Positions 240-59,822 of a stretch of DNA of 64,000 nucleotides are shown here, piece by piece. The stretch covers positions 23,797 through 87,796 of the forward strand of contig LBNX01000004.1 of NCBI GenBank assembly GCA_000989185.1. Reading direction: 5' to 3'. Under the pieces are notes generated by a model. It was not told the DNA's origin and searched no databases. It saw only the letters and a program-made list of their open reading frames with translations. How positions within the stretch are numbered: the first letter of the stretch is position 1; the number at the start of each line of letters is the position of its first letter. This DNA is from a candidate division TM6 bacterium GW2011_GWF2_28_16. Lineage in GTDB: Bacteria > Babelota > Babeliae > Babelales > UASB340. The translations under genes and the position numbers were made by a program.

Positions 240-467
240 TAAGACTCCTCTCTCGTTATAGTGTTAAACTTACTACCAACTCTTTTGAACATGTTTTTGC
301 GCCACACACGCAAAGTAGTGCCGCAGGCACTGTAGTACCGTGTTCGATACCATGCGATTAGGGTAGATATAAAAAAATATTATTTAAAGTATTTTTTTAA
401 TAATATAGGTTTGTCTTAAAGATAAAGGGTTTTTTGTGATTATAATTAATGTATTATTCTTGTACTT

Positions 468-500
468 GTTATGCTGAATTTGTTTCAGCATTTAGAAATA
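468..500 (+). repeat. F-type hairpin repeat, variant copy
   Basis: GTTATGCTGAA-tttgt-TTCAGCATTTAGAAATA. Same architecture as GTCATCCTGAA-cttgt-TTCAGGATCTAGATA at 59729, with paired stem changes (CC/GG to GC/GC). Confidence 0.55.
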
Positions 501-506
501 TAAATT

Positions 507-700
507 TTTTAACAAATTAATATTTTTTTAATAACAAAGTTCTTCTTTTAACAAAAGAAGAGGCTGTTGGCCTCTCCTTTTGAAATCCTCACCAACAAAA
601 GAGTAAACTCTTTTGAATCTCTTAACGCTTCAAATCGCACCTATCCACCTGTGGTGGAATAGGCGTCTCGATGAAGCTAATAAAGTATTTTATATAAATA
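507..700 (+). repeat. family-1 intergenic repeat, copy 1 (AT-rich leader, two hairpins, module A hairpin)
   Basis: 507-628 is near-identical to 2210-2332. Contains hairpins AGAGGC-tgttg-GCCTCT and AAAAGAG-taaa-CTCTTTT. Module A stem is CCTATCCACC-tgt-GGTGGAATAGG (640-663). Ends in AGCTAATAAAGTA, as the other copies do. Confidence 0.8.
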
Positions 701-707
701 TAATTTC

Positions 708-752
708 AAAAAGAGCCTGCTTTAGCTGGCGTAACTGTGCTAGCGGCAGGCT
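708..752 (-). terminator. putative rho-independent terminator downstream of uppP
   Basis: On the minus strand, stem AGCCTGC (752-746) pairs with GCAGGCT (720-714), followed by CTTTTT. It starts 15 nt after the uppP stop. Confidence 0.45.
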
Positions 753-766
753 AGCGCTTGCTGCGT

Positions 767-1645
767 TTAACGTGAGATAATTAACCAAATTATTAAAATA
801 ATTATTGGTATTGGCATATAATATGCAAATTTATATAATTTGCCAGATTCAGCAATTTGTTTAACTTTTTTGAAAATAAAATAAGAGATAATGCTAGCCC
901 AGCCTACGCACAAGGCTACGGCGGGCATGCTATAATTAGGTGAAATATAATAAATAAAGTTTTTATTTGTCATTATAATTTTATAAACCCCCAACAAAAA
1001 TCCAGCGCAAATAATTGGGAATTGTATTAAAAATGTTATTTCAAAATTTCTTTTTAAATTTTTATTTAATAAACTCGCAAAAAAGAATACTGCTGCAAAT
1101 CTTGATATACCTGGGATTAGTGCAAGCCCCTGCACAAGGCCAAGAAGGGCAAAATTTATCGCAATGTGATTATTCGCCAGGCGATAGCCTGGCTCTACCT
1201 CAATGCCGCCACGCCTTGCGGCGGGCTCAAATGCCAGCAATAAGCCTGTTATACAAAAGCCAGTGAGTAATAAAAAATTAGAATTATAAAAGCTTAAATT
1301 TGTGATATAAAATTTAAATAAAAGCCAGATTAAAACTGTTATGCTGTCAGCAATAAAAATAAGCGATATTATTTTAAAAAATATTTTATATAAATTTTTA
1401 TAAGAATCTTTTAAATATATTTTTTTATTAAGTATGCCTGATAATAATTTTTGTATAGGCCCCCACCAGTTTTTATAAAAAATTATTAATAATATAATTA
1501 TTGTTGGTAAGTGCAAAACGTAATCAAAATATTCTGGAATATTTATACCAAAAAGTTTTTCTGCTAATAAAAAATGGCCAGAGCTCGAGATTGGCAGTGA
1601 TTCTAATATTATTTGTATAAAAATAAATATGATAATATAAAACAT
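767..1645 (-). CDS. uppP: undecaprenyl-diphosphate phosphatase (BacA/UppP family)
   Basis: 292 aa polytopic membrane protein. N-terminal LPISSSGH matches the UppP LPxSSxGH motif, and GLALIPGISR matches the ALxPGxSRSG motif. Confidence 0.85.
   Translation of the reverse strand: MFYIIIFIFIQIILESLPISSSGHFLLAEKLFGINIPEYFDYVLHLPTIIILLIIFYKNWWGPIQKLLSGILNKKIYLKDSYKNLYKIFFKIISLIFIADSITVLIWLLFKFYITNLSFYNSNFLLLTGFCITGLLLAFEPAARRGGIEVEPGYRLANNHIAINFALLGLVQGLALIPGISRFAAVFFFASLLNKNLKRNFEITFLIQFPIICAGFLLGVYKIIMTNKNFIYYISPNYSMPAVALCVGWASIISYFIFKKVKQIAESGKLYKFAYYMPIPIIILIIWLIISR
1175..1228. repeat. GC-rich palindromic segment translated in frame within uppP
   Basis: 54 nt encoding EPAARRGGIEVEPGYRLA. Contains hairpin GCCAGGC-gata-GCCTGGC (1176-1193). 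Also contains GCCGCCACGCCTTGCGGCGGGC, which resembles the intergenic modules at 5291-5318 and 11891-11916. GC rises sharply here in an AT-rich gene. Confidence 0.5.
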
Positions 1646-1691
1646 AAGTTAGCTTTCTTTTTTTATGATATTTACCGTTTTTATTGTTAAG

Positions 1692-1720
1692 TTGCAATGT
1701 ACAATCCAAAATATTATAAA
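1692..1720 (+). promoter_or_regulatory. candidate sigma70-type promoter for the antitoxin/toxin-remnant pair
   Basis: TTGCAA (1692-1697), 17-nt spacer, TATAAA (1715-1720), about 30 nt upstream of the ATG at 1750. Pattern match only. Confidence 0.3.
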
Positions 1721-1749
1721 TATATAGATATTAATTTGAAAGGATAATT

Positions 1750-1956
1750 ATGAAAAATTTCTTAGATGACTTGGCTCCAAATATTATAAAAAATAGTTCA
1801 GGACAAGAGATAGGTGTGTTTTTTGATATTAAAGATTATAATTTGCTTCTTGAGCATTTAGAAGAATTGTATTTGGGCAAAATTGCACAAAAAATTAAAA
1901 AAGAAGAAGGTGATAATTTAAAGAGCTTAGAAGATTTTGAAAAAGATCTTGATTAA
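1750..1956 (+). CDS. putative type II antitoxin (Phd/YefM-like)
   Basis: 68 aa acidic protein. Its stop lies 2 nt before a RelE/ParE-like remnant, which is the typical antitoxin-first arrangement. Confidence 0.5.
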   Translation: MKNFLDDLAPNIIKNSSGQEIGVFFDIKDYNLLLEHLEELYLGKIAQKIKKEEGDNLKSLEDFEKDLD

Positions 1957-1958
1957 AG

Positions 1959-2117
1959 ATGAGTAAAAATAGTTTATTTGGTTACAAAATATTTTTAACT
2001 AATAGAGCACAAAAAGAAATAAAAAAACTTACAAAGATAGATAGAGATAATGTATCTATAATTTTTGTTGGGCATAGAAAAAAAGTATATCAAGAATTTA
2101 AAAATATGTTTGGCTAA
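1959..2117 (+). pseudogene. internally deleted RelE/ParE-family toxin remnant
   Basis: 52-aa ORF not in the track: MSKNSLFGYKIFLTNRAQKEIKKLTKIDRDNVSIIFVGHRKKVYQEFKNMFG. It keeps the family N-terminus (Y-I-F-T..A.KEIKKL) and C-terminus (VSIIFVGHRKKVY). About 40 residues of the core are missing. Confidence 0.55.
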
Positions 2118-2209
2118 TTTTTTTAATACAGATTATAGATTATTTTTATAGTATTAATTTTTATTAAAATTTTAATTTAAAAATAACTTTAATAAAGTAA
2201 TAAAAGATC

Positions 2210-2416
2210 TTTTAACAAATTAATATTTTTTTAATAACAAAGTTTTTCTTTCTACAAAAGAAGAGGCTGTTGGCCTCTCCTTTTGAAATCCTCACCAACA
2301 AAAGAGTAAACTCTTTTGAATCTCTTAACGCTCCAACTCACATTGCCGGTTGCGCACTACGTGCTATCCGGACAAATGTTCGGTGTAGCTAATAAAGTAT
2401 TTTTTATAAATTGTAG
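2210..2416 (+). repeat. family-1 intergenic repeat, copy 2 (alternative inner hairpin cassette)
   Basis: 2210-2332 matches 507-628 with only a few mismatches. The module A hairpin is replaced by a different GC-rich hairpin (ACATTGCCGG...CCGGACAAATGT, inner GCAC-tac-GTGC). The shared end AGCTAATAAAGTATTTTTTATAAATTGTAG is retained. Confidence 0.8.
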
Positions 2417-2467
2417 TTTGAAGTATATATGCGACAAGCAATACTTGTGTTAATAATCTAAAAAAAT

Positions 2468-2757
2468 CTTTATTAGCTTCATCGAGACACCCATTCCACA
2501 AACGGTGGATGGGTGCGATTTGAAGCGACACAAAGGGTTTTAAAAGGGTCGTCCCTTTTATTTGCGGGGATCGCAAAGGGGTTGTCAAAACATAACCCCT
2601 TTGCAAACGAAATAAATATTTTAATTAAAAAAGAGTTTATCCAGCCTTCGCGTAAAGCTTCCAACTTCGCCAAGGCTTCGATGGACAGGACGGCGGACAC
2701 AGTCAGTAAAGATGATTTTCTTATATCTGGATCCTGAAATAAATTCAGGATGACAAA
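2468..2757. repeat. mosaic of GC-rich hairpin modules (A inverted, C, D, E, B inverted, F inverted)
   Basis: 2468-2527 is the rc of module A. AAAAGGG-tcgt-CCCTTTT lies at 2542-2559 and TTTGCG-gggat-CGCAAA at 2561-2577. GCAAAGGGGTT-gtcaaaacat-AACCCCTTTGC lies at 2573-2604. 2641-2699 is the rc of module B (5154-5212). 2725-2756 is an F hairpin. Confidence 0.8.
2725..2756 (-). repeat. F-type hairpin repeat
   Basis: The rc reads GTCATCCTGAA-tttat-TTCAGGATCCAGATAT, with a perfect 8-bp stem. Confidence 0.75.
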
Positions 2758-3237
2758 TGATTTTAAAATAAATAATAATAAAAAATAATAAATAATAAAA
2801 AATAAATAAATTTAAATTAAAAAAATTACATAAAAATATAAAATTTCTACACCCCATTTACCTAGCTTTTAAAAGCTAAAAAACCCTTTATTTTTCAGTA
2901 TAATCTTTGCTTTTTGTCGATCAACAGAGGGTTGCAGAATAAAATTTTTTTTTAAAAAACTTGAAATGTGGATCAAGAGTTGCTAAGTTATAAGGCATAA
3001 TGATTTAGAAAAATAAAAAGTGAGACACAAACAACATAAATGTTAGTATGTTTATCTAGTTAAAGAAAGGAGGAGGCACAAAAACAATCTTTCTTTTTTT
3101 CTACTCGTAAGTTTTTACAAGACGTGTTTATAGTAACGAGTTTAGGTAAGTACTTTTAATTGAGTAAGTGAATTCGTCAATAACAGACATGTTTCATTTA
3201 CAAAATTAAAATCGTTTTTTTATAGGGGAAAGACAGT

Positions 3238-4761
3238 ATGAACAAACTGTTAAAAGGTTTACTTGTCACAGCTTTAGTTGTTGGCACCGTAAACGCAGAT
3301 ACAAACAAAACATTCTTAATGCCTAGATCAGCTGGCGTTAATCTTCCAATGGAATACACAACATTTAATGAATTAATTCAACATAAAAATGGCGACTTCT
3401 TTGGAGCTCATTTCCAAGTAGTTCCATTTTATATGGATTCAACAAATGGTTCTGATATAGGTAAGTATTTTGGTATTGCTGGCAAAAATACATTTGTAAT
3501 TGGTAACTCAACTTTAGTTACAGCAGGTACAGCTGATATGAATTATGGATATATAATTCATAATATAGCAACTGCAGCAACTGCTGGTGTTGCAACATTG
3601 AATTTTGATCCAGAACTACAAGCTTATGGTGCAAGAATTGATTATTATCAAGATTTAGAAAAAATTCTTGATGGTTTATATTTAAAAGTTGCATTACCTA
3701 TAGTTCACACTGAAACAAAGATAAATAGAACAGTTTCATCTGTTACAGCAAGTAACAATTTGACAGAAGCACACTTGAATGAATATTTTGCTGGTACTTA
3801 TTCTCAAGATATTGCAGATGCAAATGCTCAAGCAGTTCTTGAACATGCAAAAAGAGATGGTTCTCATTCAGAAACATCTGTTGCAGACATTGATGTAGTA
3901 TTAGGCTACAAGATTTGGGACAAAGAAAAATACTCTTTTGCATTAAATCTTGGCTTAACAATTCCTGTTGGCAATGATGCTGATGGAGATTGGGCATTTG
4001 AACCAATAGTCGGCAATGGCGATCATTGGGGCTTTGGTGGTGGCTTAGATGCAATGGTAAGACTTTGGAAGAAGAATGATCAAGATATTAAATTAACATT
4101 AGCAGCTAACTATAGATATTTATTCTCTGGTACAGAAAAGAGAACATTGGGCTTAAATGATGTTGATGGTGTAGAAGTTCCTTTTGGCCAATATTATTTA
4201 GCAGCAACAATTGGTGATATACGTAGAACTCAACAATTACAACCTGTTGCAAATCTTTTAACACAAGATGTTAAAGTAGAGACAGGCAGCCAATTGGATG
4301 CAGAGTTATATTTTACATATAACAATGGTGGCTGGAATGTAGAACTTGGCTATAACCTATTCTACAAAGATTCTGAAGATGTAAGTCTTAAGAATGCTTG
4401 GTCAGACGGAGTATATGGTATAGCATTTATAGATCAAACATTTGCTACTGGTGGTGATGGTACTTTCGTAGCATCTGCAGATGGTACTGCCGCTGTTGGT
4501 GCTAATGGTGGTTCTCGTGGTCTTATAAACAATACTCCAACAAATACAGCTTTAGGCCAAACAACCAGAGCTTATGGTATCAATACCCATGTCGCAGAAT
4601 CAGCATCACAATTTACAAACAAGATCTTTGGTGGCGTTGGATATATTTTCAGAGAATGGGAATATCCAATGATGCTAAACATCAGTGGTGCATATGAATT
4701 TGCTGATCGTGATGCAATTGAAAATTGGCAAATCTGGGGTAAGATTGGCGTTAAATTTTAA
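3238..4761 (+). CDS. secreted outer-membrane beta-barrel candidate, OMP family paralogue 1
   Basis: 507 aa with signal peptide MNKLLKGLLVTALVVGTVNA and a C-terminal ...WGKIGVKF ending in Phe. Clear paralogy with 6994-8571 and 13647-15074 (TNKT(F/Y)L..RS, DIGKYFG, LQP.AN.LTQ.VK..(T/P)GS.LD). SD GGGGAAAG upstream. Confidence 0.65.
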   Translation: MNKLLKGLLVTALVVGTVNADTNKTFLMPRSAGVNLPMEYTTFNELIQHKNGDFFGAHFQVVPFYMDSTNGSDIGKYFGIAGKNTFVIGNSTLVTAGTADMNYGYIIHNIATAATAGVATLNFDPELQAYGARIDYYQDLEKILDGLYLKVALPIVHTETKINRTVSSVTASNNLTEAHLNEYFAGTYSQDIADANAQAVLEHAKRDGSHSETSVADIDVVLGYKIWDKEKYSFALNLGLTIPVGNDADGDWAFEPIVGNGDHWGFGGGLDAMVRLWKKNDQDIKLTLAANYRYLFSGTEKRTLGLNDVDGVEVPFGQYYLAATIGDIRRTQQLQPVANLLTQDVKVETGSQLDAELYFTYNNGGWNVELGYNLFYKDSEDVSLKNAWSDGVYGIAFIDQTFATGGDGTFVASADGTAAVGANGGSRGLINNTPTNTALGQTTRAYGINTHVAESASQFTNKIFGGVGYIFREWEYPMMLNISGAYEFADRDAIENWQIWGKIGVKF

Positions 4762-4834
4762 TTGAATAATTAATAATTTAATTTCAATTTACCATGATCC
4801 ATAAAGTAATTTGTGGATTACGATGTAAATCGAT

Positions 4835-4864
4835 GGGGCTCATAGAAATATGAGCCCTTTTTTG
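4835..4864 (+). terminator. rho-independent terminator after OMP paralogue 1
   Basis: GGGCTCATA-gaaa-TATGAGCCC followed by TTTTTT. Confidence 0.7.
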
Positions 4865-4935
4865 TTATATGAATTTTTTATTTATATTTTAATTTTTGAG
4901 TTTTCGTTACTGATTAACTTATTTTAAATATAAAA

Positions 4936-5404
4936 TTTATTTCGTCTTTAGGGGACTTCATTTTGGAAGTCCCCTATAACCCCTGCAAACAAAAGAGTAA
5001 ACTCTTTTGAATCTCTTGACGCTTCAAATCGCACCCCTCCACCGTTGGTGGAACGGGTGTCTCGATGAAGCTAATAAAGTACTTTTTATAAATTGTAGCA
5101 TTATATCTAGTGTTTAATTTAAAGATCTCCATATTAGACTTACCTTGTCTGCCTGTCCGCCGTCCTGTCCATCGAAGCCTTGGCAAAGTTGGAAGCCTTG
5201 TGCAAAGGCTGGAAGTGCCTAATGACGTTAGTCAGGAGGCACGAGTTAAGTCGTAATAAAGGGTTTTAAAAGGGTCTTCCCTTTTGACCTGCCCGCCATA
5301 GCCTTGGCGACGGCTGGGTTTACAGGGGTTATAGGGGACCATTAAATACATCGATGCCCTTTAGGCGTTGAGATGAAATCATGGTCCCCTAAAGACGAAA
5401 TAAA
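4936..5404. mobile_element. 469-bp composite palindromic element bounded by perfect inverted repeats (MITE-like, no ORF)
   Basis: Outer IR is TTTATTTCGTCTTTAGGGGAC (4936-4956) against GTCCCCTAAAGACGAAATAAA (5384-5404), 21/21. Inner IR is GTCCCCTATAACCCCTG (4969-4985) against CAGGGGTTATAGGGGAC (5323-5339), 17/17. The interior carries module A (4986-5099), module B (5154-5212), module C (5258-5286) and a CGCCATAGCCTTGGCGACGGC module. Confidence 0.6.
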
Positions 5405-5489
5405 CTTTTTAAGTAAAAAAGAGTTAGTCAGAAAATATAACTTAGAAATTAAATTTAAATTAAATTTAAATTTTAAGTTATAATTCGTT

Positions 5490-5739
5490 TTAATTTACAA
5501 TTTTATTTTTAAAAATTTTAGCAATTTTATTTTTATCTAGTTTAGAACATGCTATATCAAGGCCTAAATTAACAAGTTCTTCATTTGTAAAATTTACGAT
5601 ATAGCCATTTAATTCTAAAAAGATTATTGCTGTCATAAGGCCAGTTCTTTTATTGCCATCAAAAAATGGATGATTTTTTAATTAATTGATCATGTATTTT
5701 AATAATTTGATTAATAGATAAAAAAATAATTTTAGACAT
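5490..5739 (-). pseudogene. doc: Doc/Fic-family toxin pseudogene (internal deletion plus frameshift)
   Basis: ATG at 5739 gives MSKIIFLSINQIIKIHDQLIKKSSIF then a stop. The adjacent frame reads HPFFDGNKRTGLMTAIIFLELNGYIVNFTNEELVNLGLDIACSKLDKNKIAKIFKNKIVN. HPFxDGNKRT is the Doc/Fic active-site motif. About 40 residues between the N-terminal helix and the motif are missing. Confidence 0.7.
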
Positions 5740-5743
5740 AGCT

Positions 5744-5935
5744 TTATTTATGCGCTAATTCTTTTAAGGCGTTAGAATATTTTTTTATATTTTTTTTAAC
5801 AATTTTATCAAATTTATTCTGATCTTGAATAACAAGGATGACTTTTATTTTACTGTTTTTTAATTTTTGTTTATATTTTTGTGGAATTTTTAAAAAACCA
5901 TTTTCTTCTTGTGTTATAAATTCTATTTTTTCCAT
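5744..5935 (-). CDS. putative antitoxin partner of the doc remnant
   Basis: 63 aa. Its stop lies 4 nt upstream of the doc-remnant ATG on the same strand, the antitoxin-first order. Confidence 0.5.
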   Translation of the reverse strand: MEKIEFITQEENGFLKIPQKYKQKLKNSKIKVILVIQDQNKFDKIVKKNIKKYSNALKELAHK

Positions 5936-5965
5936 ATTTTGTCCTTATAATAATAATTTTTAAAA

Positions 5966-5991
5966 TTATAACTTAAATTTGTTAGTTATAA
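5966..5991. promoter_or_regulatory. inverted repeat upstream of the antitoxin (candidate operator)
   Basis: TTATAACT-N10-AGTTATAA, a perfect 8-bp IR 31-56 nt upstream of the ATG at 5935. Confidence 0.3.
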
Positions 5992-6062
5992 AAATTTAAT
6001 AAAATTTAAATAAATTTAGCGTATTTTGATTATATAAATATTATAATTATTTGTTTTATAAC

Positions 6063-6112
6063 TTTTACTTGGCCTATAATTATACTTATTGCTATATTAA
6101 TTTTATTAAATA
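6063..6112 (+). repeat. 50-bp direct repeat, copy 1 (upstream of the MNT/HEPN pair)
   Basis: TTTTACTTGGCCTATAATTATACTTATTGCTATATTAATTTTATTAAATA. Matches 6875-6924 at 48/50. Confidence 0.85.
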
Positions 6113-6143
6113 TTTAAATGTTAAAAAAAACAGGAACATAAAT

Positions 6144-6458
6144 ATGAAAAATATTTTGGATGAAATAAAAAATAGATTAGTAAAAGTATATAGTCCTACA
6201 AAAATATATTTATTTGGCTCTAGCGCTTGGGGTAAGCAAACACCAGAAAGTGATTTAGACTTATTGATATTAATTCCAGAATCTAACGAAAGAAGTTACA
6301 AACGAGCAATTAAAGGAGAATTAGCTTTAGCAGATTTATTGGTTTCTAGAGATTTACTTGTTTATACAGAAAAAGAATTTGAATCTCTAGCAAGCGATGT
6401 AACTACTTTATGCTATAAAATAAAAAAAGAGGGAAAAGTAATCTATGCAAATGCATGA
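6144..6458 (+). CDS. nucleotidyltransferase-domain protein (MNT-type antitoxin)
   Basis: Start moved to the ATG at 6144, which has an AGGA SD. Contains the GS...D.D minimal nucleotidyltransferase motif (LFGSSAWGKQTPESDLDLLIL). Overlaps the downstream HEPN gene by 14 nt. Confidence 0.75.
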   Translation: MKNILDEIKNRLVKVYSPTKIYLFGSSAWGKQTPESDLDLLILIPESNERSYKRAIKGELALADLLVSRDLLVYTEKEFESLASDVTTLCYKIKKEGKVIYANA

Positions 6459-6864
6459 TGCATGGTTAAAAAAAGCTCATAGTGATTTATTAATAGCAAA
6501 AAAACTTTTTGATTTAAATGAGCTTGATTTATTTGATGGCGCAGCATATCACACTCAACAGTGTGCAGAAAAAGCTTTTAAATCATATTTGGCATATAAA
6601 AAACAAAATATTGAAAAAACACATAATTTAGTTTTATTGGTAAAATTATGTAGTCAGTATGATGCTGAATTTGAATCTTTATTGAATATATCAGCTATCT
6701 TAAATCCATATAGTATTAAATTTAGATATCCAGATGATGTAATGGTTCCAGAAAAGAGTGACTTAAAAGAGGCAATAGACTCTGCAGAAGTTATATTTAA
6801 ATTTATAAAGAAAAAAATTTCTGAGTTTAATACAGGACAGGGTAGTATATTTAGAAAATTATAA
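6445..6864 (+). CDS. HEPN-domain protein (toxin of the HEPN/MNT pair)
   Basis: 139 aa all-helical protein directly coupled to the MNT gene. The layout and size are typical of HEPN partners. Confidence 0.65.
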   Translation: MQMHDAWLKKAHSDLLIAKKLFDLNELDLFDGAAYHTQQCAEKAFKSYLAYKKQNIEKTHNLVLLVKLCSQYDAEFESLLNISAILNPYSIKFRYPDDVMVPEKSDLKEAIDSAEVIFKFIKKKISEFNTGQGSIFRKL

Positions 6865-6874
6865 ACTTTATAAA

Positions 6875-6924
6875 TTTTACTTGGTCTATAAATATACTTA
6901 TTGCTATATTAATTTTATTAAATA
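6875..6924 (+). repeat. 50-bp direct repeat, copy 2 (upstream of OMP paralogue 2)
   Basis: 48/50 identity with 6063-6112. The two copies bracket the complete MNT/HEPN operon. Confidence 0.85.
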
Positions 6925-6926
6925 GG

Positions 6927-6958
6927 ATTAGATCACGGCTCGGCGGCCGGGATGACAT
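6927..6958 (-). repeat. F-type hairpin repeat (GC-stem subtype)
   Basis: The rc reads GTCATCCCGGC-cgccga-GCCGTGATCTAA, with one stem mismatch. Confidence 0.65.
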
Positions 6959-6993
6959 ACTGTGTGATAGTATTTTTAAAAGAAAGAGAGAGT

Positions 6994-8571
6994 ATGAACA
7001 AAATTTCAAAAAATTTTATATTTAAATTTTTATTATTTTTAAATTTATTTTTTATAAATAATATTTATTCGACAGAAACAAATAAAACTTATCTTTTATC
7101 AAGATCTACTGGTGTAAACTTATCAATGGAGTACACGACTTTTAATAATTTTGTAAATTACAGAGATGATAAGCGTGCCCGGGATAATAAAGACAATAGC
7201 TTTGGGGCGCATATACAAGCAACGCCATATTATTTAGAATCGAATAATGGCAAAGATATAGGTAAATATTTTGGTTTTGATGATAAAAATATTTTACGAA
7301 TAGCTAGAAATAATATTGCTGGTTATGATCTAGATTTTAGATATATGGTGCATGATAATGTAAATACAGCAAATACAAATGCAATTGTAAAACTTGATCC
7401 AAAGTTTGAATCGTATGGTTTGCGTCTTGATTATTATCAAAAATTAGAAAAATTTCTCGATGGTTTATATTTTAAAATAGCTATACCAATATCTTATGTT
7501 AAAACAGATGTGCGATTAAATATTGCTGATCAGGCTGGATATTTTGTTGCTGGAACAAACACAGATTTGTATAAATATTTTGATGGCACTTATAATTTAC
7601 CTGTAGGTAATGCCCGAGCTCAAGCTGCTCTTGAATATGCAAAAATTTCTCAACATAAATTTTCAAAGACAAGCGTTGCAGATTTAGATTTAGTTTTAGG
7701 TTGCAAGTTTATAGATAGAGATAAATACTATGCAATAATAAATTTTGCATTAACAATACCAACAAATAACGAAGCTGGTGCCGGATATATGTTTGATGTA
7801 AATGTTGGCAATGGTAGTTATTGGGCTTTGGGTGGTGGGCTCGAAGGTATGATGCGCTTGTTTGGAAAAACAAATGATCATAATTTAAATTTAGTTGCAG
7901 TTGCAAATTATAGATATTTATTCGAAGGCAGAGCTGAGCGAACTATGGGTTTATTAAATCCAGATGGTACACGTGCAAACTGGGGCCAATATTATTTGGT
8001 TGGCGAAATTGGTACAGCTGTAAGTACACAACAGTTACAGCCTGCTGCAAATGTTTTGACACAAAGAGTAAAACTTGCTCCGGGTAGCCAATTAGATTCT
8101 ATGATCTATTTAAATTATAAATATTCTGGATTTACAGCAGAATTAGGTTATAACTTTTTCTGGCGTGATGACGAACAAATTAGTTTAAAAAATGAATGGC
8201 AAAATAATGTTTATGGCGTAGCAATTTTAGATCAAGATATGACTATTGCTGGAGGCGCAACTTTTGCAAACACTGGTTTTGCAGCTACAGCTGTACCTGT
8301 TAACGGTGGCTCTATGGGATATATTAATAATGACCCAGATAACACAGCTTTTACTGCTGCAGGAACAGTTGCAACTAGAGCTTATGGTTTAGATGAAGGT
8401 GTAGGTGCTGCCAGTTCACAAAATACACACAAAATTTTTGCTGGTTTGGGTTATGGCTTTTATGATTTTAAATTTCCCTGCATGCTTGGCATCGGCGGAG
8501 CATATGAATTTAATGGCGATGATGGAATTGAAAATTGGCAAGTTTATGGCAAAGTGGGATTAAAGTTTTAA
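6994..8571 (+). CDS. secreted outer-membrane beta-barrel candidate, OMP family paralogue 2
   Basis: Start moved to the ATG at 6994, after AGAAAGAGAGAG. Has a signal peptide and a C-terminal ...YGKVGLKF. Collinear with paralogue 1 along its whole length. Confidence 0.65.
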   Translation: MNKISKNFIFKFLLFLNLFFINNIYSTETNKTYLLSRSTGVNLSMEYTTFNNFVNYRDDKRARDNKDNSFGAHIQATPYYLESNNGKDIGKYFGFDDKNILRIARNNIAGYDLDFRYMVHDNVNTANTNAIVKLDPKFESYGLRLDYYQKLEKFLDGLYFKIAIPISYVKTDVRLNIADQAGYFVAGTNTDLYKYFDGTYNLPVGNARAQAALEYAKISQHKFSKTSVADLDLVLGCKFIDRDKYYAIINFALTIPTNNEAGAGYMFDVNVGNGSYWALGGGLEGMMRLFGKTNDHNLNLVAVANYRYLFEGRAERTMGLLNPDGTRANWGQYYLVGEIGTAVSTQQLQPAANVLTQRVKLAPGSQLDSMIYLNYKYSGFTAELGYNFFWRDDEQISLKNEWQNNVYGVAILDQDMTIAGGATFANTGFAATAVPVNGGSMGYINNDPDNTAFTAAGTVATRAYGLDEGVGAASSQNTHKIFAGLGYGFYDFKFPCMLGIGGAYEFNGDDGIENWQVYGKVGLKF

Positions 8572-11675: not shown

Positions 11676-11912
11676 GTTTTTTGCCCAGGGCATTAGAAGC
11701 AAGTCGGTAGCATTCGCGTAGGCAAATTTGAAGCTATCTCAAATATAAAATATTTAAAATTATATTTTCTAGATAGCGTCAAAAAAAACAATATCAATTT
11801 CAGGTCCGCCTTCGTTAAAACTTCGGCGGGACAGCCTACGCAACTGTGCTATTAAAATCTTTTTAAATTATAATACCGGTACTGGCATGCCAGCCGTAGC
11901 CTTGGCGTAGGC
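11676..11912. repeat. GC-rich hairpin modules flanking the 3' side of tRNA-Ala
   Basis: TTTGCC...GGCAAA at 11680-11726. GTCCGCC...GGCGGGAC at 11804-11831. CAACTGTGCTA (11841-11851) differs by one base from TAACTGTGCTA at 732-742. CCAGCCGTAGCCTTGGCGTAGGCTGG (11890-11915) abuts and overlaps the tRNA 3' end. Confidence 0.6.
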
Positions 11913-11988
11913 TGGTGGAGCTAACCGGGGTCGAACCGGTGACCTCATGAATGCCATTCATGCGTTCTACCAACTGAACTATAGCCCC
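11913..11988 (-). tRNA. tRNA-Ala (anticodon GGC), CCA encoded
   Basis: The rc folds as a cloverleaf. Acceptor stem GGGGCTA/TAGCTCC carries the G3:U70 alanine identity pair. D arm is GTTC/GAAC. Anticodon stem CATGA/TCATG has loop ATGGCAT. T arm is ACCGG-TTCGACC-CCGGT, and the 3' end is ACCA. Confidence 0.9.
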
Positions 11989-13646: not shown

Positions 13647-15074
13647 ATGAAAAAAAATATTTTGTTATTATTAGTGCTTAGCTTATTTGCAGCTAACATA
13701 TCTGCATATACAAATAAAACATATATGCGCCCACAAGATAGTTCTACGTATTTACCAGATAGATTTAGAGTAAATGATTATTATAAAGCTGATTTTAAAA
13801 TGCCTAGCTTAATAGGTAAATTAGATATTACTGCTTATCATTTTCATTCTATAAGTAAAGATAAAATGGGAAGATATTTTGGTGTGAATGAAAAAAGTGA
13901 ATTTAATTTTATTGGTGATCAAACCAATGATGATATGGATATTGACTACAGATATTTAATTTCAAATTATTCTGCACATACTAATTATTCTGCAAAAATG
14001 AGTCTTGATCCAAAAACACAATATGCAGGCTTTAATGCATCTGTTATATTAGATTTATCTAGAATAAATAAACATTTAGCGTTTAAGATTAATGTTCCAT
14101 ATCAAAGAGTACATACAGATTTGCGTTCAAATTTTTCTTCTTCTAATGCAAGTTTGATTAAAGATTATTTAGCGGGTGATTATTCTTTAAATGTTGCAGC
14201 AGGTACTCGTAATCAAGAAGCATTAAGATATGCAAAAATTACTGATCAACAAGAAAAATTAGGCATTCCATTTATGGATTTTTGTCTTGCATATAACACT
14301 CATAACGAAGATGGTTTAATTAATACAGTAAAACTTGGATTTATTTCAACAGTAGAAAAAAAAGCTACAGCTGAATATCTTTTTGAACCAATATTAGGGA
14401 ACAATAATCACTTTGGTATTGATGTTGGTATTGAAGGTAGCAAAAGACTTTTTGATGGTAATGGTCATAGAAGTTTTGTAGATTTTGTTTGGGATTTAAA
14501 TTATAAATATTTATTCTCTAATACACAGTTTAGAACTTTGGGTATAAAGGGTGCAAACTGGGGACAATATTATTTATTAGGTAAAGAGGGCGTTTCTGGT
14601 GCATTTATTCCTGCTGCCAACGTTTTGACTCAAAATGTAAAAGTTGAACCAGGTAGTCACCTTGATTTAAATTTAGAATTATTATTTGGATATCATGCAT
14701 CTAGAGTTTCTGTTGGTGGTAATATTATTGCAAGACAAGAAGAAGAATTAGATTTTAAAAATAATCTTGCGACTCAAACTTATGGTGTAGTTACACCAGG
14801 AACATCTTCTGCTGTAAACTTTGATTTAAGTACTAATGTTGGACTTGGTAATTATACAACATATGCTTTAAGCAACGATAATATAGATTTAAAAGCTGCT
14901 CAAGCTCCAGGTATATTTGCTTACAAAGTTTATTTGCAGTATGCATATGATTATGTAAAACGAAATACAGAAAGAATGTTTACAGTCGCAACAGGTGTAT
15001 CTCTTAACATTACAGATCAGAATGCTCATTTTGACGGCATTGGGTGTTGGTTTAAGATGGCTGCATATTTTTAA
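13647..15074 (+). CDS. secreted outer-membrane beta-barrel candidate, OMP family paralogue 3 (divergent)
   Basis: 475 aa with signal peptide and TNKTYMRP start of the mature protein. Contains RYFG, NWGQYYLL and PAANVLTQNVKVEPGSHLD, and ends in Phe. Starts 17 nt after cca. Confidence 0.6.
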   Translation: MKKNILLLLVLSLFAANISAYTNKTYMRPQDSSTYLPDRFRVNDYYKADFKMPSLIGKLDITAYHFHSISKDKMGRYFGVNEKSEFNFIGDQTNDDMDIDYRYLISNYSAHTNYSAKMSLDPKTQYAGFNASVILDLSRINKHLAFKINVPYQRVHTDLRSNFSSSNASLIKDYLAGDYSLNVAAGTRNQEALRYAKITDQQEKLGIPFMDFCLAYNTHNEDGLINTVKLGFISTVEKKATAEYLFEPILGNNNHFGIDVGIEGSKRLFDGNGHRSFVDFVWDLNYKYLFSNTQFRTLGIKGANWGQYYLLGKEGVSGAFIPAANVLTQNVKVEPGSHLDLNLELLFGYHASRVSVGGNIIARQEEELDFKNNLATQTYGVVTPGTSSAVNFDLSTNVGLGNYTTYALSNDNIDLKAAQAPGIFAYKVYLQYAYDYVKRNTERMFTVATGVSLNITDQNAHFDGIGCWFKMAAYF

Positions 15075-33749: not shown

Positions 33750-35060
33750 ATGCAAATTAATCTTGATATAGATTATTCTTTATTTAAGTCTAGACGAGAA
33801 CAAGTAATAGATTTTTTAAAAGAAAAAAATAAAAATATAGAAAATGGGCTAGTTATTTTATTTTCAGACTTTGAAAGCGAAAGATATTTATTTAGACCAG
33901 AAAGTTCTTTTTATTATTTAACAGGTGTAAGTGAGCCTGGGGCTGTTTTGTTATTGTATTTTGATGGACGACAATATTTATATTTGCCAAATTACGGTGG
34001 TATTCGTGAAAAATGGGTTACAAGTGAAATAAATATAAATAATAATGTCGAAGAAATTTCTCAAAAAATGGGATTTACAGAGATAAAATATTTGGGTTCA
34101 AGTATTAATAGTTTTTCTTTTAATTCTTTATTTTCACAAGAAAAATATTTTAATTTATTGTTAGATATAGATATATTTTTAAAAAATTTTGAAAAAAAAG
34201 AAATTTATACTCTTTTAGATTTAGAAAATAATAATAAATATTTTACGCAAATAAATATTTATAAAAATATTCTTGAGTTATACCCAGAAATGGCAAACAT
34301 AACTGGTGATATTGCTCCACTAGTACATTTTTTACGTAGATTTAAATCTGAAGTTGAGATAGATTTAATTTATAAAGCTATACAAATAACAAATATAGCA
34401 CATGATGCTGCTGCAAAAGTTATTGCTCCAGGTAGAATTGAGCGAGAAGTGCAGGCGATAATAGAATCTGTATTTATACAAACAGGTGCAGTTAGACCTG
34501 CATTTCCAAGTATTGTTGCAACAGGTAAAAATACAACTATTTTGCATTATACAAAAAAGGATCAAGAATTAATGCCAGGAGATTTAGTTGTTGTTGATAT
34601 TGGTGCAGAGTATGGCATGTATGCTGCAGATTTAACTCGCACTTATCCCGTATCAGGTCAGTTTACAGAGCGACAAAAAGAAATTTATAATATAGTTTTA
34701 GAAACGCAGGTTTATGTAGAATCTATAGCTAAGCCTGGTATGTATTTAAATAACAAAAATTTCCCAGAAAAATCGTTAAATTATTTAGCACATAAATTTT
34801 TAGAAAGTTATGGCTTAGGGCAATACTTTGCGCATAATATAGGACACTTTTTGGGCTTAGATGTGCATGATGTTGGTGATAATAATTATGAATTACAACC
34901 AGGTGATGTATTTACAATAGAGCCTGGAATTTATATTCCAGAAGAAAATTTGGGTATAAGAATAGAAGATGATTTTTTAATGGTAGAAGATGGAGTGGTT
35001 TGTTTGAGCTTTGGCTTGCCAAAGAGTTGTGATGAAATAGAAAAATTAATGAAAGAATAA
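33750..35060 (+). CDS. pepP: Xaa-Pro aminopeptidase (M24B)
   Basis: 436 aa. M24 metal ligands appear in VVDIGAEYGMYAADLTR, HNIGHFLGLDVHD, EPGIY and IRIEDD. Confidence 0.85.
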   Translation: MQINLDIDYSLFKSRREQVIDFLKEKNKNIENGLVILFSDFESERYLFRPESSFYYLTGVSEPGAVLLLYFDGRQYLYLPNYGGIREKWVTSEININNNVEEISQKMGFTEIKYLGSSINSFSFNSLFSQEKYFNLLLDIDIFLKNFEKKEIYTLLDLENNNKYFTQINIYKNILELYPEMANITGDIAPLVHFLRRFKSEVEIDLIYKAIQITNIAHDAAAKVIAPGRIEREVQAIIESVFIQTGAVRPAFPSIVATGKNTTILHYTKKDQELMPGDLVVVDIGAEYGMYAADLTRTYPVSGQFTERQKEIYNIVLETQVYVESIAKPGMYLNNKNFPEKSLNYLAHKFLESYGLGQYFAHNIGHFLGLDVHDVGDNNYELQPGDVFTIEPGIYIPEENLGIRIEDDFLMVEDGVVCLSFGLPKSCDEIEKLMKE

Positions 35061-35097
35061 AGCCGGGTTTTATCCCGGCTTTATTCTTTCATTAATT
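35044..35097. terminator. perfect 24-bp-stem palindrome overlapping the pepP stop (probable bidirectional terminator)
   Basis: AATTAATGAAAGAATAAAGCCGGG-ttttat-CCCGGCTTTATTCTTTCATTAATT. The left arm includes the last four pepP codons (LMKE) and the TAA. Confidence 0.6.
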
Positions 35098-59728: not shown

Positions 59729-59762
59729 TTGTCATCCTGAACTTGTTTCAGGATCTAGATAT
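59729..59762 (+). repeat. F-type hairpin repeat (reference copy), immediately after the rplQ stop
   Basis: TTGTCATCCTGAA-cttgt-TTCAGGATCTAGATAT with a perfect 8-bp stem. It begins on the nucleotide after the TAA. Confidence 0.8.
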
Positions 59763-59783: not shown

Positions 59784-59822
59784 AAAAAAAAGACTCGTGA
59801 AAATATCACGAGTCTTTTTTTT
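59784..59822. terminator. bidirectional rho-independent terminator ending the ribosomal cluster
   Basis: A-run, AGACTCGTGA-aaata-TCACGAGTCT, T-run. Confidence 0.8.

Follow-up and report, generated by a model that had tools for sequence, protein, structure and literature searches.

This report concerns a 469-bp non-coding element at positions 4936-5404 of a 64,000-nucleotide stretch of DNA (the window) from the candidate division TM6 bacterium GW2011_GWF2_28_16 (GenBank assembly GCA_000989185.1, contig LBNX01000004.1, positions 23,797 to 87,796); the phylum TM6 is now called Dependentiae. The element is most of an inverted doublet of two ~190-nt units, which occupies window positions 4910-5431. 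Each unit has three hairpins in the order hp1, hp2 and hp3, followed by an AT-rich tail that ends in ...GTTAGTCAG (also given as ...AAAAAAGAGTTAGTCAG). There are six copies of the unit, two singlets (u0 and u1) and two doublets (u2L/u2R and u3L/u3R), and all of them lie inside 10.3 kb. Our preferred suggestion, which we hold with moderate confidence, is that the family is a non-autonomous, hairpin-rich repeat of the type that includes repetitive extragenic palindromes (REPs), bacterial interspersed mosaic elements (BIMEs), REPINs and miniature inverted-repeat transposable elements (MITEs), and that REP-like insertions are nested in the inverted doublet to which the element belongs.

The search for copies covered 81 kb of the contig, from -9234 to 71787 in window coordinates, and was made with an nhmmer profile of the unit and with a covariance model, R1. 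Both give the same six copies and none in the remaining ~71 kb. The singlet u0 lies on the plus strand at 1890-2110 of L001, whose coordinates belong to the same contig and include the stretch upstream of the window; the copy is ~4.7 kb upstream of the window. The singlet u1 (513-701, minus strand; 213.5 bits with R1, 95 bits with nhmmer) lies in the gap that separates the stop codon of BacA from the start of a 441-aa gene upstream, and its hp3 is of a diverged type, which we call Z. Both doublets are inverted head to head with their tails pointing outward. In the doublet that makes up the element, u3L (4910-5095, minus strand) scores 209.7 bits over the full R1 model and 180 bits with nhmmer. 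Its partner u3R (5113-5431, plus strand) is a diverged full-length unit. Although it was left out when R1 was built, it is recovered by R1 with 65.8 bits (E ~1-2e-9); its other scores are 49.5 bits with R1 over 5248-5431 (filters off) and 67 bits with nhmmer over 5239-5425. The second doublet (2216-2643) is built in the same way, with diverged arms. It consists of u2L (2216-2413, minus strand; 180.1 bits with R1, 45 bits with nhmmer over the full length), which has a Z-type hp3 and a variant hp1, and of u2R (2452-2643, plus strand; 192.4 bits with R1). The whole 469-bp composite has no second copy in the 81 kb; only its ~190-nt halves recur.

The sequence-only reading that had drawn attention to the element described it through its inverted repeats. 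These are present at the positions and with the lengths that were claimed: a perfect outer repeat of 21 nt (4936-4956 against 5384-5404) and a perfect inner repeat of 17 nt (4969-4985 against 5323-5339). The outer repeat, whose ends read 5'-CTGA...TCAG-3', carries on at 84-89% identity to about 4907-4956 / 5384-5434 (~50 nt), and the inner one is 22 nt long if one mismatch is allowed (4969-4990 / 5318-5339). When the window was shuffled 100 times with its dinucleotide composition preserved, perfect inverted repeats within 700 nt had a maximum length of 13-17 nt, with 17 nt attained in 4 of the 100 shuffles. Since the shuffles never exceed 17 nt, a 21-mer that encloses a nested 17-mer is not a product of chance. 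Both arms of the inverted repeats have in common a core, GTCCCCTAWA, and this means that 4936-4990 and 5318-5404 each form a local hairpin. The latter is the reverse complement of the former, but with a loop of 44 nt in place of one of 12 nt. The outer and inner repeats are nested because hp3, itself a hairpin, is present twice in opposite orientation. On the left, hp3 of u3L (4936-4990, minus strand) is made of the left outer and inner arms by the local pairing TTTAGGGGAC / GTCCCCTATA; on the right, hp3 of u3R (5318-5404, plus strand) is made of the right inner (5318-5339) and outer (5384-5404) arms and has the stem of u3L. The limits 4936 and 5404 do mark the repeats, but as the ends of an element they were drawn slightly too tight, the repeated sequence spanning 4910-5431.

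The suggestion that the ends also occur elsewhere proved right. The right-end sequence recurs in the window (5395-5425 matches 2607-2637 at 90%, within a diverged version of the end at 2594-2637), and a search for the 21-bp terminus beyond the window gave a match with one mismatch at L001 2064-2084, so that the ends are found in other contexts. One of these contexts is a singlet: the supposedly terminal module is present at L001 1996-2107, with 20 of the 21 positions of the 21-mer matched, and includes a near-identical long-loop hp3 at L001 1996-2084.

The interior of the element had been described as an assembly of modules A, B and C that are found elsewhere in the window, and the sequence matches bear this out. 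Module A (4988-5093) is 91% identical to 594-699 and 76% identical to 2297-2416, and it also matches the reverse complement of 2459-2530; module B (5154-5213) is 92% identical to the reverse complement of 2640-2699; and module C (5258-5285) is 96% identical to 2532-2559. These modules correspond to parts of the unit. The second half of module A (GCTTCAAATCGCACC...TCTCGATGAAGC) is hp1. For hp2 there are two homologous variants (AAAAGGG/CCCTTTT as against AAAAGAG/CTCTTTT), namely module C and the first half of module A. The third hairpin, hp3, is a hairpin that we denote U, with the diverged Z type (hp3 and tail) at 504-593 and 2207-2296.

In u3L, read on the minus strand, hp1 is hairpin A2 (GCTTCAAATCGCACCC...GGGTGTCTCGATGAAGC; 5020-5077), hp2 is hairpin A1 (CAAAAGAGTAAACTCTTTTG; 4988-5017), hp3 is U with its 12-nt loop, and the AT-rich tail ends in ...GTTAATCAG. 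All five copies of A2 fold as a hairpin. The one at 2329-2397, in u2L, has another stem sequence and a longer stem but the same fold, and the sequence on either side of it is almost the same as in the other copies. A1 is matched by the module C profile at E = 4e-7, and their alignment contains a compensatory change from GGG/CCC to GAG/CTC; A1 is homologous to C. Module C itself is hp2 of u3R (AAAAGGGTCTTCCCTTTT; 5258-5286, plus strand) and has copies at 2532-2559 and L001 1970-1997, with one mismatch each. In u3R this hp2 is followed by an inserted module, D, then by U with its 44-nt loop and by a tail ending in ...GTTAGTCAG, and at the apex of hp1 there are module B and a small hairpin, as a replacement or an interruption. 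The base of this hp1 can still be traced by inspection: TTAGACTTACC (~5134-5150) pairs with GAGTTAAGTCGTAA (~5241-5257), with a compensatory shift from the GCTTCA/TGAAGC of other copies to GACTTA/TAAGTC. None of this sequence appears to encode protein. The earlier statement that there is no credible open reading frame (ORF) is correct, as just a 70-aa ORF starting with TTG and some shorter ones overlap the element, and 5.8 billion proteins, searched with a six-frame pseudo-protein, gave nothing at E <= 1.

The hairpins are conserved as structures. In five full-length copies with 47 base pairs, 94.9% of the cells are paired, compared to 38-54% when the partners are slid by 1-3 columns, and 20 of the 47 pairs have changed on both sides, compared to 3-6 when slid. 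The observed pairing values were reached in none of 500 shuffles. These compensatory changes in the stems indicate that the hairpins are under selection. The stem of hp3 comes in three completely different versions, each fully complementary, and the GGGGTT/AACCCC of u2R in place of the GGGGAC/GTCCCC of the 469-bp element is likewise a compensatory change. In the hp1-to-tail orientation there are G.U or G.T pairs at about eight pair positions against one A.C mismatch (a count from the pair tables), and this bias points to one particular strand as the one that would fold. With DNA parameters the unit forms the same three hairpins, z being -6.6 for u3L as single-stranded DNA. The whole composite has a z of about -12 on either strand (-12.4), which is expected from inverted duplication and adds no further information. 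The idea that the element could fold into one very long structured RNA is unlikely to be correct too: what is conserved and covaries is the set of local hairpins within each unit and not the long-range pairing, the latter being an automatic result of the inverted duplication.

Such conservation of structure is also what would be seen if the units were genes for a structured small RNA present in several copies, and this is the most serious of the alternatives, unlikely though we think it is. The RNA would correspond to a complete unit of ~190 nt or else to hp1 and hp2 alone, with the U-rich hp2 at its end, and a doublet would be two adjacent genes in opposite orientation. Strong covariation in all three hairpins, conservation of the single-stranded linkers, the concentration of G.U pairs in one orientation and a folding far better than in shuffles (z of -6.6 for the unit and of about -12 for the composite) all agree with it. 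Moreover, hp2 (AAAAGRG-loop-CYCTTTT, then RTTT) resembles a weak intrinsic terminator. However, Rfam 15 gives no match to such an RNA: over the window tRNA-Ala alone passes the gathering threshold, and at E <= 5 the matches in 300-5700 are all far below threshold and none is credible. The number of promoter-like sites in 300-6200 does not exceed that in shuffled sequence, and inspection of the flanks reveals no conserved promoter upstream of the six copies. In the orientation that the G.U pairs favour, the units of a doublet would have to be transcribed divergently from a spacer of just 17-38 nt. The units also tolerate insertions of 30-60 nt and wholesale replacement of hairpin sequences, and they have no homologue in three syntenic relatives, which is unusual for a functional RNA and typical of selfish repeats. 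Group I and group II introns, tmRNA, RNase P and riboswitches were considered as well and are ruled out by Rfam and ARAGORN.

The insertions just mentioned belong to another class of sequence. Module D (CCTGCCCGCCATAGCCTTGGCGACGGCTGGG; 5288-5318, plus strand) is a GC-rich REP-like hairpin of ~31 nt between hp2 and hp3. In the alignment of units it is an insertion of 32 columns that is found in u3R alone and is lacking in u0 and u2R. Module B (5154-5213, plus strand), in the middle of the doublet, is a long two-hairpin form of the same D/B family, shares a core with D and sits in the interrupted hp1 apex of u3R. Another copy of B (2640-2699, minus strand) abuts the tail of u2R, inserted at ...GTTTATC^...AGTCAG. 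In this reversed orientation B follows directly after the tails of both u0 and u2R, at a place where u3L and u3R have the uninterrupted ...GTTAGTCAG. The junction of u0 and B has AGTC on both sides, and a short form of B lies at L001 2108-2140. Further members of the D family are found outside the units, at 11886-11916, 897-930 and L001 1838-1875, and a copy that is 93% identical occurs in a different species (5161-5194 of L005, a related locus in GCA_030629005.1). The first of these abuts the 3' end of the gene for tRNA-Ala(GGC) (11913-11988, minus strand). The second lies inside the coding sequence of BacA, where it encodes ...MPAVALCVGWA... in a protein that is not longer than its homologues. 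Judging by their presence and absence at unit junctions, the copies outside the units and the copy in another species, D and B behave as a separate REP-like family of small insertions, with ~30 nt, a GC-rich imperfect palindrome and (G/A)TAG just 5' of the stem.

Other short palindromes occur nearby. A perfect 26-nt palindrome, GGATCCTGAAATAAATTCAGGATGAC, stands just right of the second doublet at 2729-2754. It is found again at 59731-59756 with 3 mismatches, after a rplQ-like gene, and an identical copy at L005 7830-7855 lies inside the BacA ORF as an in-frame insert, ...VILNLFQDPV..., that is absent from other BacA homologues. It is a second small repeat family that is shared between species and tolerated in ORFs, in the manner of the Rickettsia palindromic elements. 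In the BacA ORF of the window (minus strand) a GC-rich palindromic patch at 1180-1240 encodes ...EPAARRGGIEVEPGYRLA... in a loop that has a different insertion in every homologue. The patch gives no match to the nhmmer profile of the D family; it may be another in-frame repeat insertion.

If the units are repeats of a mobile kind, what kind could they be? The sequence-only reading called the architecture MITE-like. This is fair insofar as the element encodes nothing and is a modular, strongly palindromic repeat. It does not hold if it means one element with two independent sets of terminal inverted repeats as its limits, as both repeats are arms of hp3, present twice in inverted orientation within ~190-nt units that also occur alone. 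A classical MITE would be a single non-autonomous transposon of ~470-520 bp that has terminal inverted repeats and is moved by a DDE transposase. The perfect 21-nt inverted repeat, imperfect to ~50 nt, would suit such an element, as would its small size, its intergenic and non-coding nature and the recurrence of its end sequence. However, a target-site duplication was sought at every plausible boundary and none was found: there is no direct repeat of at least 4 bp at 4936/5404, 4911/5430 or 4908/5433 (offsets of 0-6 nt). The composite does not recur, while its halves do, and singly too; the supposed terminus continues into further modules in other copies, with B following the tails of u0 and u2R; and a cognate transposase, of the DDE type or any other, is missing from the 81 kb. 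Exact scans of GTDB species representatives and JGI metagenomes for a 29-mer of A1 and a 21-mer of A2, and of IMG/VR for the A2 21-mer and for 18 nt of the outer terminus (part of the hp3 arm), returned nothing, the source genome being evidently absent from these collections. A distant-mode blastn search with a 528-nt composite gave no match among plasmids and phages. With no duplication, no recurring composite and no transposase nearby, a classical MITE is not supported, and we regard it as improbable. The unit family appears to be species-restricted.

The same gene order of BacA and an outer membrane protein (OMP) gene is found in three relatives, represented by loci L005, L008 and L011, whose OMP proteins are 69%, 62% and 45% identical, respectively, L005 being the closest. 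None of the three contains a unit that nhmmer or R1 can find. (An OMP paralogue, P0073, likewise belongs to another species and not to this genome.) In L005 the same intergenic slots hold other mobile genes, among them one, in the region 6700-7440, for a Y1 transposase of 125 aa of the IS200/IS605 type, TnpA, which matches NF033573 with 83 bits (cutoff 55) and the RAYT model with 29 bits, below its cutoff of 80. It is flanked by inverted, GC-rich palindromic repeats of ~55 nt (GCCTGCGTGAGCGGGCGACTTTATGGTAGCCCTGCGCGTAAGCGTTGGGCG) that are unrelated to the present units; a second tandem copy is located downstream, and three AAA_14/DUF4143 ATPase genes are found at the same locus. This Y1 transposase tells us that hairpin-dependent HUH transposition exists in the lineage.

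On our preferred reading the family would be selfish or formerly mobile DNA whose propagation depends on hairpins that form on one particular strand as single-stranded DNA. The substrate logic would be that of the HUH/Y1 transposases, such as IS200/IS605 TnpA and RAYT. Target-site duplications are not produced by HUH/Y1 transposases. The family would replicate as inverted doublets, the singlets would be remnants left by decay, and local recombination or gene conversion between copies would have given rise to the mosaic of hairpin variants. The mobility of the units and the enzyme responsible for it are what we infer here.

Several resemblances led us to place the family near the REP group. By its published definition a REPIN consists of two inverted REPs and the spacer between them, which together fold into a hairpin as single-stranded DNA or in mRNA (PMC3116915). 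The present units are likewise non-coding, intergenic and palindromic, and they occur either singly or in inverted pairs, each pair folding into one long hairpin; there are two such head-to-head doublets, and the z of the composite is -12.4. As in REPs, BIMEs and REPINs, the arms of the doublets are better conserved than the spacer, target-site duplications are missing, and the units form a mosaic with other short motifs. The differences are equally plain. A REP is 20-40 nt long, whereas the unit here has ~190 nt and three different hairpins; in size and form it is the D/B modules (a hairpin of ~31 nt) that match a REP, and the unit does not. Only six copies are seen in the 81 kb and all are clustered, unlike those of REPs and REPINs, with none in the other ~71 kb. 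In contrast to REPIN-RAYT systems, neither RAYT nor TnpA is found in the 81 kb, and the TnpA of L005 goes with different palindromes. The family resembles the PATE elements derived from IS200/IS605 in that there are subterminal hairpins (hp1 and hp3) at the ends, no duplication and no terminal inverted repeats in the single unit. Unlike in PATE, the flanks of the six copies share no target sequence, and hp1 and hp3 are unrelated in sequence.

Other repeats should be mentioned for comparison. The BOX elements of pneumococci (boxA-boxB-boxC), the ERIC/IRU sequences of enterobacteria, the Rickettsia palindromic elements and the QMITEs of Coxiella are modular repeats of 100-300 nt with stable predicted folds and internal insertions or swaps of modules; they are species-restricted, and some lie inside ORFs. 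By this description all four are similar to the present family, which has a modular and species-restricted unit and a D-like sequence in the BacA ORF. The head-to-head doublets and the order of the three hairpins are particular to the present family and set it apart from these four groups, and no relationship in sequence is to be expected. With classical MITEs such as Correia/NEMIS it shares small size, a non-coding and intergenic nature, inverted-repeat ends and strong folding back; it differs from them in that there is no duplication, the halves are independent, and the ends are not the limit of the repeated sequence in other copies.

A number of observations weigh against our reading. Since all six copies lie in 10.3 kb, local duplication is at least as good an explanation as genome-wide transposition. 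The unit has 5-8 times the length of a REP, and there is no sequence relationship between its two outer hairpins such as exists between the left and right ends of IS200/IS605. Compensatory changes would fit a functional RNA equally well. Searches by tblastn and Pfam scans found no gene for a Y1/HUH or other transposase in the 81 kb, and beyond AT-richness there is no conserved target motif beside the ends of the six copies. The three relatives, of which the nearest has an OMP identity of 69%, are too distant for a comparison with empty sites at the level of single bases. A more far-reaching suggestion, which strikes us as rather doubtful, is that the unit is a strand-specific functional nucleic acid of this Dependentiae lineage in which hairpin sequences are swapped and structure is kept. 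It might then be a multi-copy regulatory small RNA, or it might be the module that provides recognition or guidance in a hairpin-dependent mobility system, HUH-type or RNA-guided, of a kind yet to be described.

The surroundings of the element offer some further clues. The window comes from a groundwater metagenome, being part of a 265-kb contig (ENA ERZ909592, run SRR1658473, project PRJNA268031). The products of its BacA and OMP genes match, at 100% identity, proteins that NCBI assigns to GW2011_GWF2_28_16. Its G+C content is ~29%, and the element is a GC-richer island within a gap of 1.3 kb. To the left lies an OMP-family gene of 507 aa (3238-4761, plus strand), and to the right two short ORFs (5490-5935, minus strand) with no Pfam match above the curated cut-off. 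Beyond the latter is a pair of nucleotidyltransferase (NTase) and HEPN genes (6051-6864). From such positions one could argue that the units are cis-acting hairpins that the host has recruited as terminators, insulators or stabilisers of mRNA 3' ends and that have been multiplied by local duplication or gene conversion, with no mobility at all. Such roles have been documented for REP and BIME elements. All copies are intergenic, most of them at gene 3' ends or between convergent genes, and all are in one 10-kb neighbourhood. However, the flanking genes have terminators of their own. That of the OMP gene, at 4835-4865, is the sole consensus terminator that a terminator scan finds in 300-6200, and by inspection a hairpin with a T-run follows BacA at ~705-760. 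In addition, the units have no consistent orientation with respect to the genes beside them, and the syntenic relatives do without them. As a full explanation we consider this improbable; it is compatible with the family being repeats of the REP type.

The presence of toxin-antitoxin-like genes in the vicinity, RelB-like at 1750-1956 and NTase/HEPN at 6051-6864, raises the question of whether the units are attC-like sites of an integron-type array that lacks an integrase, with toxin-antitoxin genes as its cassettes. The ends GATTAAC...GTTAGTC loosely resemble the core sites RYYYAAC...GTTRRRY, and structure is more conserved than sequence, as such sites would have it. The core motifs nevertheless deviate from the consensus, the elements measure 190-520 nt where 57-141 nt is typical, and the flanked genes BacA and OMP are syntenic core genes and not co-oriented cassettes; nor is there an integrase in the 81 kb. 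We have rejected an attC array on account of its core motifs, length and flanking genes, and its probability is very small. An invertible promoter switch was also dismissed: there is no recombinase, the element is 3' of the OMP gene, and units also occur singly.

If the repeats are what we suggest, they extend a known phenomenon and represent neither a new kind of element nor a new principle. Dependentiae are parasites of protists with reduced genomes and are known almost only from metagenomes; searches of the literature found no description of intergenic repeat families in them. From the present family it is seen that these genomes have kept structured and probably mobile repeats with nested REP-like insertions, in intergenic slots that in relatives hold toxin-antitoxin and IS200-like genes. 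There is also a practical side, as the repeats can be miscalled as ORFs and break short-read assemblies. Two independently assembled short-read (Logan) contigs of the same organism from a different run, SRR3309375, L002 (window 3021-5050) and L010 (~600-2239), have ends inside repeat units. L002 stops at 5050, in hp1 of u3L, and L010 ends at ~600 in u1 and at ~2239 in u2L, from which it is seen that the repeats fragment such assemblies.

Finally, a few observations concern the neighbouring genes. A direct repeat of 68 nt, 90% identical (6045-6112 and 6857-6924), brackets the NTase/HEPN pair at 6051-6864, which suggests that this cassette may have been inserted or duplicated as a unit between two OMP paralogues; in L008 the OMP paralogues are directly adjacent. 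There are three OMP-like paralogues in the window (3238-4761, 6952-8571 and 13647-15074), 30-48% identical. No Pfam domain is found in the three, and PF13557 is found in 2 of the 120 homologues listed. At least 235 proteins of the collection searched belong to the family, and the named ones are nearly all from Dependentiae/Babeliales, often in tandem beside BacA. Other long perfect hairpins are located at gene ends, at 35044-35097 (24-nt stem, 6-nt loop) and 59784-59822 (17-nt stem, 5-nt loop), and are presumably strong intrinsic terminators.

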